A stretch of 53,894 nucleotides of DNA from a virus (lineage: Duplodnaviria; Caudoviricetes): positions 1 through 53,894 of the IMG/VR virus record IMGVR_UViG_3300010293_000478; one strand, 5' to 3'. Every line of letters starts with the position of its first letter. Within the stretch, counting starts at the first letter, position 1. Shown here piece after piece: positions 1,795 through 50,899 of the stretch. The translations under genes were made by a program, and so were the position numbers. The notes beneath the pieces were generated by a model that was not told the DNA's origin, did no database searches, and saw only the letters and a list, made by a program, of their open reading frames with translations.

Positions 1795-3714
1795 TTATAT
1801 TTCGTCCCAAATTTCAGTATCTATCCAAACCCCGTAGTCATCCCACGACCCGGTAGCCAATACCCAAGGTTTTGAGGCATATCCTATCAATTCCACCCCG
1901 TAGGAATCCTGCCTAACATCCCAACTATAACTCGCGATCAAAAAATGCTGATCTAAACCTGCCACCTCCATCTTAGTGTACGGGAATAGTATATAGTCCT
2001 CATAAGCATACAAGCGACTAAACAAAGTCCCGGAAACCCTGATTTTATTGAGGGCATAAAAGGTAATATAACGTTCCATGGTAAAGTCCGGTAATTTCAT
2101 CGGACCACCATTAGTTATGAATTTGTGATTTCTTATAACCTCGTATTCACCACTCCGTTTACATATTAGATTATTGTAGTAAATATAAGGGTCACGCGGG
2201 TTAGTTATTTCAATAGAGTCATGCCCATAATACTTCTCCAAACTGACTGACTTAGGGTTCTCGTCGTTTATACTGGTTTTCTTTTTAATATTATCGCTAT
2301 ACTCGGTTCCTGCTGAATCTTTAACAGCAATTAATTTCCAATCGGAATACTCTATATACCACAAATCATCAACAGGGTCCGGTGCCGCGGGCATCATTGA
2401 GAAAATTAATATCCCGTCGTAGTCCTTCAAATAAATAACACGTTCTATTGTTTTAGCAGAATTAAACCCAAGTATTTCCTCTGGCCAAAACACCTGCCAA
2501 TTATTAAGAAAACGAAAACCAAAATACACAGTTGCTCCCAGTCTTGTAGGATTCTCCCGGAATGAAGCTAACCGAACTTTTAAGGTCAGTTTAAAATAAC
2601 CTTTTTTGTGCGGGAAATCATTATGGAATTGAATATTAACTTGTGGTGTTCTAAAATAAGGGTTTCCAATTATTTGGTTAATATACCATGGTTTCAATAT
2701 GACCAACGAACGACTAATAACCATAGGAAAGTTATTAGGATTCCACTGACTCATTATCTCCGGGTCGAAATGAACGTACGGGGTTCTGTTTTCAAATAGG
2801 TTTTTAATTTTATCCTGTACAAAAACCAATTCTATATCCTTAGCAGGAATCTCAGCTTTCAAGTCAAGTGAGGAATTAACCTCACTATCAACACCAATTC
2901 TATGTGTTTTTTGTAAAGAAACCCCAACATGTTCAAATAATTCTCCGGTTCTCAGTATAGTGGACGCCCAAGTTACTGCCGGGTAATCCACATTCCTAAT
3001 TAGATAAGAATCTTTATAAGAACATATCTGCGCAACGTGGCTTTCTAATAAATCAGTCAAAACCTGCTGGCAATTTTTATCCCGGAACCGGTAACAATCC
3101 ACATAAGTATTAAACAAACAACCAGCATATTTATTGCCCAAATATTGAGGTCGTATTGGAATCGCATCATACCAATATTGAGAGGTCATGCCTATCTTCC
3201 ACAGAATAAAACTAATAATATCACTAATTCTATAAATACCGGTTATGTAACTATCATCGTTGTGTAAGAATTTATGATCCTTCAAGGTGCCTAAATTATC
3301 ACTAAATGAAATAGTTACAACCTGTTTTAACGCCTTGTAATGCTGCTGGTAAGTTTGAGGGGTGATATAACCAACCCCCTGTAAAATAGGGGTTTTGGAT
3401 TCTACCTTGTAAAACTTTAATAGGTATTGTTTATTGGAGGCATAACGAAGCTCATTGAACTGGTTGGTGTAGTCGCTTATGAAACTCAATTCATACATCG
3501 TGCCGGCAATTGGCCTAAATACATCACCATCAACGAAACTGTGATTAATTGTCAGGGGTTTAGTATGACCTACTAAATTAGACACAAGCCCCCCGTAACC
3601 CCTCTCAAGTATTTCCACCTGATAACGATTACCAGAGCGACTACCAAATGTTAATTGGTATTTGACCCCATAAGCGGGTAAGGCTTGTATGTTATCTAAT
3701 ATACTATAACTCAT
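1795..3714 (-). CDS. Tail hub / distal tail protein
   Basis: 639 aa, directly after the tape measure gene; called from synteny. Confidence 0.55.
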   Translation of the reverse strand: MSYSILDNIQALPAYGVKYQLTFGSRSGNRYQVEILERGYGGLVSNLVGHTKPLTINHSFVDGDVFRPIAGTMYELSFISDYTNQFNELRYASNKQYLLKFYKVESKTPILQGVGYITPQTYQQHYKALKQVVTISFSDNLGTLKDHKFLHNDDSYITGIYRISDIISFILWKIGMTSQYWYDAIPIRPQYLGNKYAGCLFNTYVDCYRFRDKNCQQVLTDLLESHVAQICSYKDSYLIRNVDYPAVTWASTILRTGELFEHVGVSLQKTHRIGVDSEVNSSLDLKAEIPAKDIELVFVQDKIKNLFENRTPYVHFDPEIMSQWNPNNFPMVISRSLVILKPWYINQIIGNPYFRTPQVNIQFHNDFPHKKGYFKLTLKVRLASFRENPTRLGATVYFGFRFLNNWQVFWPEEILGFNSAKTIERVIYLKDYDGILIFSMMPAAPDPVDDLWYIEYSDWKLIAVKDSAGTEYSDNIKKKTSINDENPKSVSLEKYYGHDSIEITNPRDPYIYYNNLICKRSGEYEVIRNHKFITNGGPMKLPDFTMERYITFYALNKIRVSGTLFSRLYAYEDYILFPYTKMEVAGLDQHFLIASYSWDVRQDSYGVELIGYASKPWVLATGSWDDYGVWIDTEIWDEI

Positions 3715-22179: not shown

Positions 22180-22664
22180 TTTATATGGAGTAAATCAATT
22201 AACCGGTGTATGATAGTTTGCAGGTCTTTGTAATCCTTTTGGCGGTTCATCTGACCTTTTGCTTTTATTACCCACTCAACTGTGGTGTAGTGGAATTTCT
22301 CAAACTCGTACACTACCAAACCGGGGTAGTCAGGGTTGGTGTGGGCGCAATAATCAACCGGTCCCAAATTACCAGCAGGATACTTTACCCAAACATCCAC
22401 GGAAACGCCCCTGAACTCAAATGTAAACGGCACTTCTCCGGGAGGTATGTATTTATATTCCTTCTTATTTGCCTCAGCTAAACCGCGTAGTATTGCCAGT
22501 AAACAATCATCAGGGTTTAATAATATGAGGTCAATGTCCTTTATAGTGGATTCATCCACCAGTCCCTGCACAGCCAGTGCCAAAGACCCGGTAACTATAA
22601 AACCGGAATGACGACCATTGAACAATTTCTTTAATTCCTGTAATTCGTGTTTAAACTTTGTCAT
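22176..22664 (-). CDS. Pol-beta superfamily nucleotidyltransferase-like protein
   Basis: TGSLAL...KDIDL...VDVW and C-terminal RQKDYKD motifs. Confidence 0.7.
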   Translation of the reverse strand: MTKFKHELQELKKLFNGRHSGFIVTGSLALAVQGLVDESTIKDIDLILLNPDDCLLAILRGLAEANKKEYKYIPPGEVPFTFEFRGVSVDVWVKYPAGNLGPVDYCAHTNPDYPGLVVYEFEKFHYTTVEWVIKAKGQMNRQKDYKDLQTIIHRLIDLLHIK

Positions 22665-22688
22665 TTGATTAATGATTTAATAAGTGTG

Positions 22689-22761
22689 TAGCGGGAGTGG
22701 GATTCGAACCCACGGCCTCCAGATTATGAATCTGGTGATCTGACCACTGATCTATCCCGCA
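22689..22761 (-). tRNA. tRNA with CAU anticodon (Met or Ile2)
   Basis: Cloverleaf: GCGGGA/TCCCGC acceptor, GATC/GATC D-stem, CCAGA-TTCATAA-TCTGG, GTGGG-TTCGAAT-CCCAC; no encoded CCA. Confidence 0.9.
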
Positions 22762-22766
22762 ATTTA

Positions 22767-22839
22767 ACGGAGGCGGAAGGAATCGAACCTTCATCCCAAT
22801 CACTTAGTGACGATTTTGGCCTACTAAACTACATCTCCG
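22767..22839 (-). tRNA. tRNA-like gene / pseudo-tRNA with aberrant anticodon arm
   Basis: CGGAG/CTCCG acceptor, TAG...AGTAGG D-region, GAAGG-TTCGATT-CCTTC T-arm; anticodon region is TCAC-TAA-GTGA. Confidence 0.55.
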
Positions 22840-22877: not shown

Positions 22878-22966
22878 TGACCGGTACAGGACTCGAACCT
22901 GTGGGGTGTCTCTAATCCGTTGACCCTACCCAATTGAAGGGGTAGTTATCGAATCAAACTCCGGTC
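22878..22966 (-). tRNA. Non-canonical long tRNA-like RNA with UCA in the anticodon loop
   Basis: GACCGG/CCGGTC acceptor, CTACCC-CTTCAATT-GGGTAG arm, long variable region, ACAGG-TTCGAGT-CCTGT T-arm. Confidence 0.55.
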
Positions 22967-46099: not shown

Positions 46100-46118
46100 G
46101 GTATTTGTTTTAGATTTA

Positions 46119-46173
46119 ACACTGACCCGGTTTCCCGGGTTTCGTCTTAATTTTCAAAGACTCATCAGAGTGT
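46119..46173 (-). ncRNA. Type I hammerhead ribozyme (copy 1)
   Basis: ACACU-CUGAUGA-GUCUU/AAGAC-GAAA-CCCGG/CCGGG-UC-AGUGU: full catalytic core, three stems, GUC cleavage triplet. Confidence 0.92.
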
Positions 46174-46174
46174 T

Positions 46175-48223
46175 TTATTTATAGGAATCTAAAAGATCAG
46201 CGAGCAGTGATTGGTTCTGTTTGTCGTGCCCATCCAAAACCTGTCCTAAAACTACGCGTTTTTTATCTAACAATTCCGCTATTTTCTGCTCAATAGTACC
46301 CTCTGCCAATAGATAGTGGATTGTTACTGCGTTCTTCTGACCTATACGGTGGCAGCGATCTTCTGCCTGAACCAAGTCACCGGGGGTCCATGGTAATTCT
46401 AATATCGCCACGTTGCTGGCTGCGGTCAGGGTTATACCAACCCCGGCGGCTTTTATATTACCCACAAACAATTTAATATTTGGGTCTTTTTGGAACTTAT
46501 CCACAGCCGCCTGTCGGTCGCTAACCGGGGTCGAACCATCTATTTTAACAGCGGTTGGAAATTGTTTCATTAGTGCCTCAATTACAAATTTATGAGTGGC
46601 AAATATGACCAATTTTTCGTCAGTTTCTAAAAAATCCTCAATCCAACTAATAGCCTGTTTTAACTTACCGGCTACTGCTAATTGTTTTAGACCTTCGATT
46701 TCAGCAAGGGTTTGGGCATTGCTGGCTTTTTCTGCAGCAGAATTACCTTTAGTGCTTCTCACATATTGAATAAAGTCCGCTGAGGCCTTTTCATATTCTC
46801 GACGATTATCCAACTCTACCGGAATGTAATTCCAAACTTTGTCAGGGAGTTCAGTGAGCACGTCCTTCTTTAAACGGCGTATCATTATGGAGTCAGTCAA
46901 TTTTTTATGTAGTTCCTGAGTATTAGAACTTCCGTTAAAATTCCAACCATACCCGTTGTTAATTGGGTTGCAATAACGTTGAGCAAACTGCCAGAATGAA
47001 TTGAACAAGGTGGGGTTGATAATACTGATGGCATTAAACATCTCCACCGGTCTGTTTACAATCGGGGTCCCTGACAAGGCTATAAAATGAGGGATGTTTT
47101 TTGCTAACTTCTTAATAGCCTTAGTCCGGTCAGCATTGTTGTTTTTATAATAATGACACTCGTCTGTTATCACCACTTTAGGCATGACCCTTTTTAAAGA
47201 ATCAACCCATGAGGCAAGCGTATCGTAATTAATAATAACAATGTCCTCAATGATTGGTTGAGGAGTACGTCCGGAAAGGATTTGAACTTTAGTGCCCGGC
47301 ATCCACTTACCCACCTCATTTTTCCACGCTGATTTTACGCTGGCTGGTGTTATAATTACTACCGGTCTTAAAGTGGGGTTAGCGGCTAACCAAGTTAAGG
47401 CCTGAGCAGTTTTACCCAATCCCATCTCATCAGCAAGTAATGCCCTACCTTGTTGTTTCTGAATGAACTCAACCCCTTTTATTTGATAGGGTTTCAAAGA
47501 AAGTCCGTTATTGATAGAAAGTTCCTTAATTTCCGGGACTTCTGTAGGTAGTGGTTTTGGTAAGGCTTGTTCTACGTCAGGACGCAGAGTAAAACCAAAC
47601 CCTTTCAAGGCATCCACGTTTTCCTGAGTTAACGGGGCTGTCCAATATTTTACCTCACCCTCAGCATGAAAACGCCGACCTGATAAGGTTTTGACCTGCT
47701 CAACCACTTTATAATCAAAAGGGAATGTGATTTTCACACCATACTCCCCGGTGGCTTTATAAGTAGCTAAAGTCACATATTTTTCCGGTAATTTTTCAAC
47801 GAAAACCGGTTGAACAGGCGCTATCTGTTTAGCGGGATTCATTGGGTGATTGTCAGGTACGAACAATTCGCCTTCGGTGGGGGTGTTACTTTTTACAACT
47901 GATTTTGGAACCCATTGGTCAATCTTTACGTCAGTGATTTTGACTTTCAGACTTTCCAACAAGGCCTCCGAATAACCACCAATCTTATCCCAATCCCAAT
48001 AGTGGGAACCACATTCAGGACCAATACCGAGCACCACGCTTACTGGGTGGGTCAATTGCCTGCCACAAATACAACATATGTTCATTTTCTGACTCTCCAA
48101 AGTACCATGACCATAAAGATACAAGGCTTTGTGGGTCTCCTTCAAAATAATGGCTTTCACTACTACGGGTATTTTATTTTCCCGGGCAAAAACCTTTCGC
48201 AAAACAAATACTTTTGCTTCCAT
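46175..48223 (-). CDS. SNF2-family (HARP/SMARCAL1-like) helicase with N-terminal zinc finger
   Basis: ADEMGLGKT, DECH, SGTP, GVGITLT and QAEDRCHRIGQ motifs; N-terminal CCIC...GIGPEC. Confidence 0.92.
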   Translation of the reverse strand: MEAKVFVLRKVFARENKIPVVVKAIILKETHKALYLYGHGTLESQKMNICCICGRQLTHPVSVVLGIGPECGSHYWDWDKIGGYSEALLESLKVKITDVKIDQWVPKSVVKSNTPTEGELFVPDNHPMNPAKQIAPVQPVFVEKLPEKYVTLATYKATGEYGVKITFPFDYKVVEQVKTLSGRRFHAEGEVKYWTAPLTQENVDALKGFGFTLRPDVEQALPKPLPTEVPEIKELSINNGLSLKPYQIKGVEFIQKQQGRALLADEMGLGKTAQALTWLAANPTLRPVVIITPASVKSAWKNEVGKWMPGTKVQILSGRTPQPIIEDIVIINYDTLASWVDSLKRVMPKVVITDECHYYKNNNADRTKAIKKLAKNIPHFIALSGTPIVNRPVEMFNAISIINPTLFNSFWQFAQRYCNPINNGYGWNFNGSSNTQELHKKLTDSIMIRRLKKDVLTELPDKVWNYIPVELDNRREYEKASADFIQYVRSTKGNSAAEKASNAQTLAEIEGLKQLAVAGKLKQAISWIEDFLETDEKLVIFATHKFVIEALMKQFPTAVKIDGSTPVSDRQAAVDKFQKDPNIKLFVGNIKAAGVGITLTAASNVAILELPWTPGDLVQAEDRCHRIGQKNAVTIHYLLAEGTIEQKIAELLDKKRVVLGQVLDGHDKQNQSLLADLLDSYK

Positions 48224-48266
48224 TGTTTCAAATTTTATGAGGTAGTTAATTTATACCTCTGGTTTA

Positions 48267-48321
48267 ACACTGACCCGGTTTCCCGGGTTTCGTCTTAATT
48301 TTCAAAGACTCATCAGAGTGT
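48267..48321 (-). ncRNA. Type I hammerhead ribozyme (copy 2)
   Basis: Identical 55-nt sequence to copy 1; intergenic. Confidence 0.92.
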
Positions 48322-48323
48322 TT

Positions 48324-48560
48324 TTAAGTTCTTAAATTTAGGAGGACCACCTGCTCCTTATTTGACCACATTCTTACTTTACTCAGCAACTCGTCACAAG
48401 TTTCGGGAAACTGTTTTATTATGTCACTTGCTGATAAATAGGGGTGGCTTATAAAGTGGCATTGCACCTCATCACGAGATCCATTTTTGGTTTTTCTCCG
48501 AGTGGTTATCAAGGCTATGGAATAGCCCTCTGTAGTTTTGATAAACGTTTTTATTTTCAT
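48324..48560 (-). CDS. Hypothetical early protein
   Basis: Stop codon abuts hammerhead copy 2. Confidence 0.55.
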   Translation of the reverse strand: MKIKTFIKTTEGYSIALITTRRKTKNGSRDEVQCHFISHPYLSASDIIKQFPETCDELLSKVRMWSNKEQVVLLNLRT

Positions 48561-48663
48561 GGTATTTGCCCGTGTAGCCGATAGCGCAGCTTGTTGGTTA
48601 ATTATTTGTAATCATTCATATGCCATTCGGTCAGGTGTATTTCAATTCTCACCTTAGTTTCTG

Positions 48664-48924
48664 CTACCATGATTCGCCAATGTATTTAAGTTCATAATGT
48701 TTAATCAAAAAATCAATGTTCTCTCTTTTCCACTTGTCCATTGACTTGCGACTATAAGGGTGTCCATCACCCTCATACCTGATTAGTGTGGCTTCGACTG
48801 TTTTAGGCATCACCTTTCTAACAGTTATTTGAATTGATTGTGGTGGCAATGGATTTTCCATTTCGTAGGTATAGTCATTGTAGTAGATGCCTACTTTCAA
48901 ATCTATTGCTATTACTGTTTCCAT
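48664..48924 (-). CDS. Hypothetical early protein
   Basis: ATG with an A-rich leader. Confidence 0.55.
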   Translation of the reverse strand: METVIAIDLKVGIYYNDYTYEMENPLPPQSIQITVRKVMPKTVEATLIRYEGDGHPYSRKSMDKWKRENIDFLIKHYELKYIGESW

Positions 48925-48948
48925 TTTGGTTGTTTTTAAGTGTGTTAA

Positions 48949-49137
48949 TTAATTTTTAATGATTGCTTTGATTTTGAGGTGCTTTAAAACCTCTTGTAAT
49001 TCAGCATTGGTGTACTTTTCAGCCACTTCCTTGCTGACGTTATTATGACAGACAGCTATATGAACCGCCCTTGCCTTCGTGATTGATGTTCTCCGTGGTT
49101 TCATGGTCATTAAATTTGCGATCTGACACCATTCCAA
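48949..49137 (-). CDS. Hypothetical early protein; true start probably MTMKPRR
   Basis: Short ORF coupled to the upstream stop. Confidence 0.45.
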   Translation of the reverse strand: MEWCQIANLMTMKPRRTSITKARAVHIAVCHNNVSKEVAEKYTNAELQEVLKHLKIKAIIKN

Positions 49138-49601
49138 TACATTTGGACATCATTTACATCACATAGAACTCGATCAGTTGCCCAACTTTCAAACGGGGCG
49201 GTTTCCCAATCCTCCGGGATTTCCTCCTCAAAAACTAACCGACCCCTGCTCGCTATTTTGAGCATGACCAATTCCTTTTCTTTCTCAGTTAATTCATAAT
49301 CCTCAAGTATAGAGGAGTCCGAAGCCCAACCACCTCCTGATAAAATTTTACCAACAAATTCTTCAACTCTTTCAAGATTAAAAGAACAAGCATCACCTGC
49401 CTCAACCACTGGAGCTGTGTATAGGGTGGTGTCAGATTCCTCCTCATAAAAGGATTTTAACAATACCTCTTTAGGAGTGTCAGGATCAGTACCTGATGTA
49501 ATAACAATTAAGTTAGATAAGGAGCTGTTGTGTGCCCGGGCAATTTCAGCTTCTGCCAAAATCTGCTCAAGTCTTTCAATAGAAATCTCAATACGATTCA
49601 T
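49110..49601 (-). CDS. Hypothetical acidic early protein
   Basis: Starts 27 nt after the hammerhead copy 3 cut site. Confidence 0.6.
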   Translation of the reverse strand: MNRIEISIERLEQILAEAEIARAHNSSLSNLIVITSGTDPDTPKEVLLKSFYEEESDTTLYTAPVVEAGDACSFNLERVEEFVGKILSGGGWASDSSILEDYELTEKEKELVMLKIASRGRLVFEEEIPEDWETAPFESWATDRVLCDVNDVQMYWNGVRSQI

Positions 49602-49623
49602 GACTTTTAATTTTTAGGATTTA

Positions 49624-49678
49624 ACACTGACCCGGTTTCCCGGGTTTCGTCTTAATTTTCAAAGACTCATCAGAGTGT
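49624..49678 (-). ncRNA. Type I hammerhead ribozyme (copy 3)
   Basis: Identical to copies 1 and 2; a UGA in the core is the stop codon of 49670..49987. Confidence 0.92.
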
Positions 49679-49987
49679 CTGATTATACGTGTGAGTATAT
49701 AAACCTTCCACGTACATAGTTATGCTCTTTCTTTTGTTTCTTACAGCCCATTGTAGGTGTTGGAGGGCTTTGTAAACTCTACCGGCGTATTCTGCCTTTT
49801 TTGTTTCTGGATTAACCCAAACAATATCCCCTCCATTCATTTGATGAATCCTATTCAAACCCAATGTATATCCTTCATTGAGTTTTTTAAGCACCTTCTG
49901 TTGTGGTTGAGTTAGTTTTTTATCGGCCTTTAATTCATTGGCGATTGAAATAAATTCGTTTAGGCTAATTCGGTCCTCTTTTTTCAT
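49670..49987 (-). CDS. Hypothetical basic early protein
   Basis: Flanked by hammerheads 4 and 3. Confidence 0.6.
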   Translation of the reverse strand: MKKEDRISLNEFISIANELKADKKLTQPQQKVLKKLNEGYTLGLNRIHQMNGGDIVWVNPETKKAEYAGRVYKALQHLQWAVRNKRKSITMYVEGLYTHTYNQTL

Positions 49988-50009
49988 GACTTTTAATTTT
50001 TAAGATTTA

Positions 50010-50062
50010 ACACTGACCAGCCGGTCAGGCTGGTTTCGCCTCATAAAGGCTCATCAGAGTGT
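50010..50062 (-). ncRNA. Type I hammerhead ribozyme (copy 4, covariant stems)
   Basis: ACACU-CUGAUGA-GCCU/AGGC-GAAA-CCAGCC/GGCUGG-UC-AGUGU. Confidence 0.92.
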
Positions 50063-50078
50063 TTTTAAAAAACGCAGA

Positions 50079-50321
50079 TTAATATTGTACGAAAATCAAA
50101 CGTTCCAGATATGGTGAACCGTTCGGTTTGAGCTGCTTGACCCACATATGGTTTGAGCCAAAACCCCAGATAAAATATTCTGCGCGCGCACATCCAAACT
50201 CACGTCTTAACTCTGTTTCATTGTTTGCCGATTGAATACTGTTCAATATGTACGCAAACTCAATCAACAACATTTGTTTTTCAGGGATGATTCTCAAATT
50301 ACTTTCAATTGTACATTTCAT
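50079..50321 (-). CDS. Hypothetical early protein
   Basis: Carries the same 27-nt leader as 49110..49601. Confidence 0.6.
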   Translation of the reverse strand: MKCTIESNLRIIPEKQMLLIEFAYILNSIQSANNETELRREFGCARAEYFIWGFGSNHMWVKQLKPNGSPYLERLIFVQY

Positions 50322-50354
50322 GACTTTTAATTTTTAGGATTTAACACTTTTTAA

Positions 50355-50770
50355 AAAACATCGTACTGTTCCGGGACTCGAACCCGGATGTCTGCCTGTA
50401 CAGTTTTGAGCTTAACTCAAAAATTCCGCATTCGTTCAAGACGACCGCGCAACGCCTCCCTTCTCCTGTATTTAGTCTATTCTCCCCTGACGGGTGTCAT
50501 TAACTTCAAAGGTCCCGGCATATTGCCCTTATTGGAATCCCGCTCAGTAACGTGGATATGAAGGAAACCAATCCCCCCACCCCAGTGTTTTCAGGCAACT
50601 GGGATCCTGCTGAGCCACCACCGATTTCGGACGAACCTACCCTTGCGCTCTACAACCTTAGTACGACTTTCTCCACAATCTCTCAGGGTTTCAAAAACCC
50701 CCTTTTTATACTAACCCTGTGGCTCTCAAGGGATTACCTACTTTTCAGTGCTTTCAAAGAACGACTTCCA
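50355..50770 (-). ncRNA. Candidate large structured non-coding RNA / leader ending in a tRNA-like T-arm
   Basis: No ORF of 60 aa or more on the coding strand, raised GC, several complementary segments, and CCGGG-TTCGAGT-CCCGG. Confidence 0.5.
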
Positions 50771-50774
50771 TGCC

Positions 50775-50808
50775 ATAAAGATACGGCAATAAATAAAGGA
50801 TCCTAATA
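50775..50808 (-). promoter_or_regulatory. Bacteroidota-type early promoter candidate, followed by boxA-like GTTCTTTGAAA
   Basis: TTAG-N19-TATCTTTA resembles the TTTG-N19-21-TAnnTTTG consensus, with one mismatch in each box. Confidence 0.5.
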
Positions 50809-50899
50809 TTTTTTGTAAAAATTTCCTAATTTATAATGATTATAAATAATACTACTTGAGAACCAAGTAGTTAGCTGAAAAAGGGAATGAAAAATATTT

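Follow-up and report, generated by a model that had tools for sequence, protein, structure and literature searches.

Four type I hammerhead ribozymes that probably divide a polycistronic RNA of a freshwater phage into gene- or block-length mRNAs

A linear viral record of 53,894 bases from IMG/VR (IMGVR_UViG_3300010293_000478; this whole stretch of DNA is called the window in what follows) carries, at gene boundaries of its minus strand, four elements with the complete core of the hammerhead ribozyme. The source phage is uncultured and of freshwater origin, one freshwater metagenome DNA run matching the window almost completely, and CheckV puts its completeness at about 78%. This DNA run, possibly that of the source sample, was the single match in a search of public sequencing runs, which returned no RNA run. 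Every open reading frame (ORF) of the ribozyme region lies on the minus strand. In the order of transcription, an ORF-free stretch (50899-50349) is followed by an ORF of 80 amino acids (aa), ribozyme 4, a 105-aa ORF, ribozyme 3, four ORFs of 163, 62, 86 and 78 aa, ribozyme 2, the gene of an SNF2-family helicase, ribozyme 1 and the gene of a sigma-like protein (Table 1). Behind the latter come a primase-like gene, a gene whose product matches PHROG 1183 (endonuclease V N-glycosylase, E 4e-10), the gene of a 422-aa protein without a Pfam match at threshold (best HTH_36, 17.7 bits versus 25) and a DnaB-like gene. The initial annotation of the locus had named a sigma-like factor, an SNF2 helicase and two proteins of no recognised kind as the products encoded downstream of the ribozymes, and our family searches agree, the small ORFs of the array region giving no match to any Pfam or PHROG family. 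The best phage matches of the SNF2 protein are only 31-38% identical and belong to phages of unrelated hosts.

Table 1. Coordinates of the ribozymes, leaders and genes of the array region (window numbering), and of ribozymes or structured RNAs near related hammerheads in other contigs
Feature	Position	Strand	Remarks
Hammerhead copy 1, type I	46118..46174	-	cut predicted between 46124 and 46123; model R1 80.4 bits (in seed)
Hammerhead copy 2, type I	48266..48322	-	cut predicted between 48272 and 48271; R1 80.4 bits
Hammerhead copy 3, type I	49623..49679	-	cut predicted between 49629 and 49628; R1 79.0 bits (in seed)
Hammerhead copy 4, type I	50009..50063	-	cut predicted between 50015 and 50014; R1 41.6 bits (not in seed)
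24-nt leader, sigma-like mRNA	46100..46123	-	begins AGTGTTAAATC
48-nt leader, SNF2 mRNA	48224..48271	-	begins AGTGTTAAACC; possible 6-bp hairpin
27-nt leader, 163-aa ORF	49602..49628	-	near-identical to copy 4 leader
27-nt leader, 105-aa ORF	49988..50014	-	97% identical to copy 3 leader
Ribozyme-less leader copy before 80-aa ORF	50322..50359	-	the T-then-A run found upstream of copy 4 here abuts GTGTTAAATCC and the remaining leader
Sigma-70 region 2 protein, 160 aa	45617..46099	-	Pfam E 9.7e-8; PHROG 351 E 1.9e-9
SNF2-family helicase, 682 aa, N-terminal DUF6011	46175..48223	-	Pfam SNF2-rel_dom E 1.2e-36
Small-ORF block (163, 62, 86, 78 aa) between copies 3 and 2	48324..49601	-	no family
105-aa ORF between copies 4 and 3	49670..49987	-	no family
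80-aa ORF upstream of copy 4	50079..50321	-	no family
Neighbouring ribozymes or RNAs in other contigs	L067:2806-2875, 3609-3678; L043:11753-11820; L005:1635-1707; L008:270-441		pass Rfam thresholds

The core pattern CTGATGA..CGAAA..GTC has exactly four matches in the window, all on the minus strand, three of them identical (46124-46168, 48272-48316 and 49629-49673) and the fourth a variant (50015-50057). In dinucleotide-preserving shuffles the chance expectation was 0.01, and four matches were reached in none of 100 shuffles. The conserved core (CTGATGA, GAAA and the GTC cleavage triplet) is intact in all four copies, as are the core-adjacent pairs G-C, T-A and A-T (10.1-11.1, 1.1-2.1 and 15.1-16.1). 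Stem I pairs ACACT on the 5' side with AGTGT on the 3' side and comprises 5 bp, or 6 with the next base; its far end is open, which gives the type I topology. Counted with a 5-bp stem I the elements extend from 46119-46173 (copy 1) through 50010-50062 (copy 4), and with the sixth pair they measure 57, 57, 57 and 55 nucleotides (nt). Over this longer extent copies 1 and 2 are identical at 57 of 57 nt and copy 3 deviates only at the outermost base of stem I. These three copies have a stem II of 5 bp with an 8-nt loop and a GAAA-closed stem III of 6 bp. Copy 4 leaves stem I and the core unchanged and forms its stem II (4-5 bp) and stem III (7 bp) from other sequences, both of which pair. The initial annotation had described three identical 55-nt elements and one variant at gene boundaries of the coding strand, each with a complete core, and had taken the pairing of the different stems II and III of copy 4 to indicate selection on structure; the coordinates, the matches and the pairing are all confirmed, and the covariation of the wider family reported below agrees with that interpretation. 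Each copy is set close to an upstream stop codon: copy 1 begins directly behind that of the SNF2 gene (46175-46177), copy 2 begins 1 nt past that of the 78-aa ORF and copy 4 begins 15 nt past the one preceding it, while in copy 3 the TGA within the CTGATGA box (49670-49672) doubles as the stop codon of the 105-aa ORF.

Cleavage after GTC is predicted to create 5' ends at 46123, 48271, 49628 and 50014, which lie 24, 48, 27 and 27 nt from the next ATG codons (46099, 48223, 49601 and 49987); recomputation thus returned the cut sites and distances that had been given before. The predicted cuts bound segments of 386, 1357 and 2148 nt that contain one ORF, the small-ORF block and the SNF2 gene, respectively. 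The leaders between cut and start codon are A-rich and lack a Shine-Dalgarno sequence. The earlier description of these leaders as uniform holds for copies 3 and 4, where both are 27 nt long and near-identical, but not for copies 1 and 2, which share just the first 9-11 nt. A fifth leader, located before the 80-aa ORF and not preceded by a ribozyme, matches the leader of copies 3 and 4. At this junction (50322-50359) the 12 bases that precede stem I in copy 4 (a G, a T run and an A run) directly abut the leader of copies 3 and 4, and it looks as if the segment that starts with the 5' strand of stem I and ends at the cut site had been lost with precision or had never been acquired.

The ribozymes of the window belong to a widely distributed family. 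A blastn comparison with a phage collection matched the ribozyme alone, in two crAss-like phages that have the same core and stem II, another stem I (ATCCC/GGGAT) and other stems III. Core and stem II together form a 30-base segment that, among the matches listed, was found in more than 116 viral contigs; 32 species genomes, with the labels Bacillota, Bacteroidota, Elusimicrobia, Melainabacteria and Gammaproteobacteria, contain it too. With a parser that demanded only pairing adjacent to the fixed core, 83 unique viral instances among the matches listed could be parsed as type I hammerheads, and these comprise 48 different 5-bp stems I and 72 different stem III sequences. The unparsed instances number 19, of which 7 are near-identical to one another, 2 are cut by locus ends and the rest have mostly bulged stems. 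The seven (L020, L052, L066, L072, L092, L101 and L107) share one sequence in which core and stem II are complete but stem III, the cleavage triplet and a partner for stem I cannot be recognised within 70 nt. This could be a dead copy, a split form or a hammerhead interrupted by a long insertion.

A gapless alignment of 23 sequences by 57 nt had 96.4% of its cells paired, a figure that is partly circular because the parser had chosen the rows, and contained 83 compensated cells versus 27 in shuffles. Two MAFFT alignments (A1 and A2) were kept out of these counts, as they misplaced gaps in stems II and III. From the gapless alignment we built a covariance model (R1), the seed of which held copies 1 and 3 of the window (copy 2 being identical to copy 1) and left out copy 4. 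R1 finds exactly the four copies in the window (Table 1), copy 4 with an E-value of 7.9e-13, which is independent evidence since this copy was absent from the seed. A weak fifth match (22479-22519, 14.3 bits) was rejected, being located within an ORF and lacking GAAA. Applied to 100 sources, R1 returned 138 matches, 116 of them distinct. In these, 95.1% of the cells pair and 15 of the 17 pairs change on both sides, with 504 compensated cells versus 134 in shuffles (a value reached in 0 of 500), and slid controls pair at 34-43%; covariation is strong in stems I and III. In the rare stem II variants the 8-nt loop TGAAAATT (or TGAGAATT) is kept and the stem is changed by compensation. As a separate observation, the 18-nt stem-loop II is letter-identical between crAss-like phages and contigs assigned to five or more bacterial phyla (L007-L122 and L151-L182); such conservation is unusual for a hammerhead stem II, in a sample that was collected through that very sequence. 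A text search of papers for the stem II sequence gave no match, a result of little weight since sequences are mostly printed in figures and supplements.

The position of the family members relative to genes was analysed in 123 distinct hammerhead contexts of the loci collected. In 112 of the 123 contexts an ORF of at least 50 aa on the same strand ends no more than 400 nt upstream, and the median gap between its stop codon and the first base of stem I is 0 nt (between -10 and +9 in 90 of 112). A downstream ORF starts within 400 nt of the cut in 108 contexts, at a median of 40 nt and in 62 of them at 20-49 nt, the start being taken as the first ATG, GTG or TTG, so that some starts are placed too early. 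The layout of stop codon, ribozyme, short leader and start codon seen in the window is found also in a related phage and in more than 100 other phage contigs, and by eye many of the downstream leaders in other contigs contain a GGAGG-type ribosome-binding site. Some bases next to the core are conserved as well. In 134 unique sequences, position -7 (7 nt ahead of the CTGATGA box) is occupied by A in 94%, position -6 by A or G in 94%, and the position 7 nt past the cut by A in 70%. At the cleavage site, 112 sequences have C, 17 have T and 5 have A. The four copies of the window and five copies of a sister phage (L138, see below) all have A at -7 and A or G at the next base. From this pattern it is plausible that the A residues left unpaired where the short stem I ends touch loop II, as the tertiary contact that gives hammerheads fast cleavage at low Mg2+. 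A longer stem I, or a pseudoknot involving loop II, was also considered and rejected, as inspection of the flanks by eye revealed no pairing common to the four copies. For the subfamily these data provide testable rules, namely a ribozyme at the upstream stop codon, a start codon about 40 nt after the cut, an invariant loop II and an A at -7.

Taken together, we consider it likely that the window encodes four genuine type I hammerheads within a minus-strand polycistronic RNA, which cut themselves to release mRNAs of gene or block length. Core, placement and covariation agree with what the initial annotation had claimed, canonical hammerheads at gene boundaries of the coding strand under structural selection. 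The polycistronic RNA would span the small ORFs, the SNF2 helicase, the sigma-like factor and the replication genes behind it; a single transcript through the array is plausible because the only minus-strand terminator-like site between about 50350 and 45600 sits inside the SNF2 ORF. Each ribozyme would fold right after, or across, the upstream stop codon and cleave itself after GTC. Nearly the whole ribozyme, stems II and III included, would then remain on the upstream RNA and give it a structured 3' terminus bearing a 2',3'-cyclic phosphate, and the downstream RNA would start with a 5'-hydroxyl (5'-OH) and only the 6-nt strand of stem I, followed by the short A-rich leader. As in a ribozyme insulator, the leaders would become independent of the upstream sequence. 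As the cut lies about 50 nt past the upstream stop codon, no stop-less mRNA should arise. What the data show is the motif with its conservation, covariation and placement; cleavage in vivo and any effect on RNA stability or translation are inferred.

Translation in this phage may be relevant in this respect. A Shine-Dalgarno-like word precedes 13 of the 61 ORFs of at least 100 aa, versus 16% of random sites, and the regions upstream of phage ORFs are 46% A. Because such words are near their random frequency, there are hints that the host may start translation without Shine-Dalgarno pairing. Since the phage rarely uses Shine-Dalgarno sequences, stripping upstream structure from the mRNAs could matter for initiation. 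The earlier proposal that the ribozymes process one transcript is retained in its central part, with which both the placement rules and a published proposal (see below) match. Its other elements fared differently: the designation as an early operon and the role of the sigma factor in driving the next stage are guesses from gene content, and protection of the mRNAs by their 5'-OH ends would depend on the host; the 5'-OH product of the glmS ribozyme is a substrate of RNase J1 in Bacillus subtilis.

A number of results speak against our interpretation, and they concern both the structure of the elements and their distribution. The initial annotation had suggested the Rfam hammerhead models as a check, and this check failed, as every one of these models stayed under its curated threshold and no hammerhead was called in the window at gathering thresholds. 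RF00163 (Hammerhead_1) aligns end to end at 46118-46174, 48266-48322 and 49623-49679 with 16.6, 16.6 and 13.5 bits versus a threshold of 34 and gives no row for copy 4; RF03152 (RAGATH-1-hammerhead) reaches 24.3-25.6 bits versus 56.3 for three of the four copies, and RF00008 (Hammerhead_3) 17.9-24.8 bits versus 48.5. Folding predictions are equivocal: the hammerhead comes out as the minimum-energy fold in just four cases, the 57-mers of copies 1, 2 and 3 taken alone and copy 1 with 12-nt flanks. Competing folds win in all flanked contexts of copies 2-4 and for copy 1 with 30-nt flanks, alternatives with flanks having an advantage of 0.2-4.5 kcal/mol over the best structure in which the hammerhead is retained, and copy 4 favours an alternative fold even without flanks; the energy model takes account neither of the non-canonical core nor of the sequence in which parts of the RNA fold while it is being transcribed. 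Stem I has only 5-6 bp and is open, with no loop or bulge seen and no recognised contact between stem I and loop II that could be assigned. In addition, the large alignment is model-fitted and most of its sequences were collected via an identical stem II, and therefore its counts favour the structure and tell little on stem II itself.

The threshold failures and the competing folds in longer contexts would be expected if the four elements were chance or decayed look-alikes that do not cleave. We regard this as extremely improbable, since four matches stand against an expectation of 0.01, all core positions are intact, copy 4 and the five copies of the sister phage pair through other sequences, and covariation runs throughout the family. 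Failure at an Rfam threshold is a test of the database models and not of the fold. The same outcome was obtained outside the window, where no family hammerhead passed the gathering thresholds in 12 family loci or among the five copies of L138. In other contigs, three Pistol ribozymes, one RAGATH-1 hammerhead and one RAGATH-14 RNA were observed within a few kb of family hammerheads; these neighbours pass the Rfam thresholds (Table 1), which the adjoining family members fail. As the subfamily lies below the thresholds, routine annotation overlooks it in crAss-like phages and in many genomes from gut and environment, and this points to an annotation gap through which a large subfamily of phage hammerheads slips.

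The distribution of the ribozymes among related phages also counts against our interpretation. Relatives of the SNF2 protein are encoded at 13 viral loci. The closest, L138 and L147, are near-identical to each other, encode an SNF2 protein 57% identical to that of the window and share with it, in the same order, the SNF2, sigma-like and primase-like genes and one further gene. In each, five hammerheads occupy the 2.5 kb that precede SNF2; they have the stem I of the window (with G-T variants), while their stems II, of three sequences, and their stems III, of two kinds, differ from those of the window, and their leaders begin in a similar way. L138, however, has no ribozyme between the SNF2 and sigma-like genes. 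In a search with R1 of 12 related SNF2 loci, from which L147 (with the same five copies) was left out as a duplicate of L138, only L138 was positive and 11 loci had no hammerhead at E < 0.1; other ribozyme classes were likewise absent from these 11 loci at Rfam thresholds. To judge from these genomes the ribozymes look dispensable, and the identical copies of the window may reflect recent spread or duplication and not long selection in this genome. With ribozymes at one of the 12 loci and small ORFs without detectable similarity between the window and L138, the array belongs to a variable small-gene region and is not a constant part of the replication module.

The same data might be explained differently if ribozyme and leader were mainly a repeated intergenic module, spread by recombination as a boundary between gene cassettes, with a cleavage that is incidental or serves the element. 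The three identical copies, a repeat that reaches about 72 nt between unrelated flanking genes, the ribozyme-less junction, small ORFs without detectable similarity to those of L138 next to SNF2, sigma-like and primase-like genes that are similar, and the 11 ribozyme-free loci would all fit such a module, and self-cleaving ribozymes are described as common in selfish elements (PMC3088659, in part). Nevertheless, an invariant core and compensated stems over more than 100 phage contexts argue for a selected, working ribozyme, and the constant position relative to stop and start codons agrees with a role at the mRNA level. We find this explanation rather unlikely as the main one, although it is compatible with processing of the transcript and the two do not exclude each other.

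Cleavage could also have the opposite consequence for the genes concerned. If the 5'-OH downstream RNAs or the shortened upstream RNAs decayed faster, the cuts would lower expression and set gene-specific lower levels. There is precedent in the glmS ribozyme of B. subtilis, whose cleavage leaves a 5'-OH end that exposes the downstream RNA to RNase J1 (part of PMC3328962), and a review remarks in one of its parts that ribozyme processing of polycistronic RNAs could yield products of differing stability or translation efficiency (PMC6765202). A strong destabilisation, however, would be odd with essential replication genes (SNF2, primase-like and DnaB-like) downstream of the cuts. Moreover, the family puts a ribosome-binding leader right after the cut, which suggests that the downstream RNA is meant for translation. 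A lowering of expression thus seems to us unlikely.

Processing into separate mRNAs might be extended to a bolder model, in which ribozyme, shared stem I and leader form a portable joint between gene cassettes that would operate at the level of RNA by re-ligation and also at the level of DNA. One stem I is common to all copies in the phage and its relative; therefore the 5'-OH end of a segment could re-pair with the 3' ribozyme of its own or of another segment. According to Perreault et al. 2011 (PMC3088659), type I is the one hammerhead type in which the RNA bearing the cyclic phosphate also keeps the catalytic core, and such a ribozyme could re-ligate the ends into circular or re-joined mRNAs. 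In DNA, repeats of 60-90 nt would drive the swapping of small early genes, and the junction at 50322-50359 would be a footprint of this process. Against a general mechanism, neighbouring ribozymes are cross-compatible in only 9 of 21 pairs in other contigs, and the excess over the 8.9% of random pairs may come from duplication alone. Against re-ligation, the same paper reports that circular or spliced products were sought in the systems of Perreault et al. and none were found. All in all, we hold the portable joint to be very doubtful.

Upstream of the array, a terminator-like hairpin (50871-50851) directly follows the preceding gene. In the ORF-free stretch of about 550 nt (50349-50899, minus strand) this hairpin is followed by a first, AT-rich part and then by a part that is richer in G+C (up to 50%) and ends in a T-arm-like hairpin (50371-50387). 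L138 also has a T-arm-like hairpin at a similar place (about 2080-2110); pairwise alignment of the ORF-free stretches of the two phages was unconvincing. The stretch of the window gave no credible Rfam match (E up to 10), contains no tRNA or tmRNA, has a fold z-score of -0.68 and found zero matches in the phage collection. It could be a long leader, an attachment site with a tRNA 3' end or a novel RNA. Elsewhere on the minus strand, ARAGORN and Rfam agree on a tRNA-Met (CAT) at 22688-22761; a second tRNA-like gene with a shortened anticodon arm (22768-22838) is found by Rfam only (39.4 bits), and one more T-arm-like sequence occurs near 22880-22900. The promoter scans yielded no site that can be named: a sigma-70 scan of the window gave 20 sites versus 24.6 expected, and the Bacteroidota -33/-7 pattern was found 4 times versus 3.2 expected, with none near the array. 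By eye, L138 has at about 1610-1650, upstream of its five-ribozyme array, a TTTG followed by a spacer of about 20 nt and TATATTTG. This element fits the Bacteroidota promoter consensus, a pattern not enriched in the window.

Clustered phage hammerheads as putative processors of transcripts were already published in 2011 (PMC3088659), and the arrangement reported here is not new. In that paper, Perreault et al. note that in prophages a gene, or a short block of genes, is often bounded by several hammerheads, propose that long phage transcripts are processed into gene-length mRNAs, and report that three tandem sets were cleaved in vitro at all sites. In the window too, coding-strand copies bound one ORF, an ORF block and the SNF2 gene; as in those clusters several hammerheads bound phage genes whose identities vary. 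The examples named there are those of Clostridium scindens, Azorhizobium caulinodans and Agrobacterium tumefaciens, whereas the window derives from an uncultured freshwater phage, has leaders without Shine-Dalgarno sequences and differs in having one stem I and leader start across four copies. A second parallel is HHphage of the haloviruses HF1 and HF2, a hammerhead located 13 nt before a helicase start codon, for which a 5' end was mapped within 3 nt of the cut (PMC3088659). A hammerhead just before the start codon of a helicase is common to both systems; the HHphage helicase is the first gene of an early polycistron, and HHphage, whose variant core requires high salt or Mg2+, occurs as a single copy in an archaeal virus, in contrast to the four copies with canonical core in the window. 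For hammerheads of bacteria and phages in general, the purpose was still called unresolved in a 2019 review (PMC6765202, in part), and our interpretation is the standard, still unproven hypothesis for the arrangement described in 2011.

Among the Rfam models the best-scoring one is RAGATH-1 (RF03152), which has in common with the window the type I topology, a 5-bp stem I after A-rich sequence and a stem III hairpin. However, the RAGATH-1 model includes a hairpin upstream and reduces stem II to a single pair, whereas stem II of the window has 5 bp (4-5 in copy 4) with a loop of its own. The copies of the window are not RAGATH-1, as the upstream hairpin is unmatched or broken in the alignments and stem II is an ordinary hairpin. 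In the crAss-like phage cr272_1 a member of the present family is preceded, at a distance of about 1.3 kb, by a true RAGATH-1 hammerhead (73.2 bits). The glmS ribozyme resembles the copies of the window in its self-cleavage within an mRNA, predicted in our case, that leaves a 5'-OH on the coding part; it depends on a ligand, and nothing suggests a ligand for the window copies. In synthetic insulators of the RiboJ type, a hammerhead placed before the ribosome-binding site removes the upstream RNA and frees translation from the upstream context. RiboJ is engineered and has another topology, while the window elements are natural, of type I and would leave the downstream RNA with about 6 nt of ribozyme. 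This useful example does not alter the general understanding of hammerheads and is no new kind; it adds a clean case of four ribozymes with one shared stem I and leader, accompanied by a sister phage with five.

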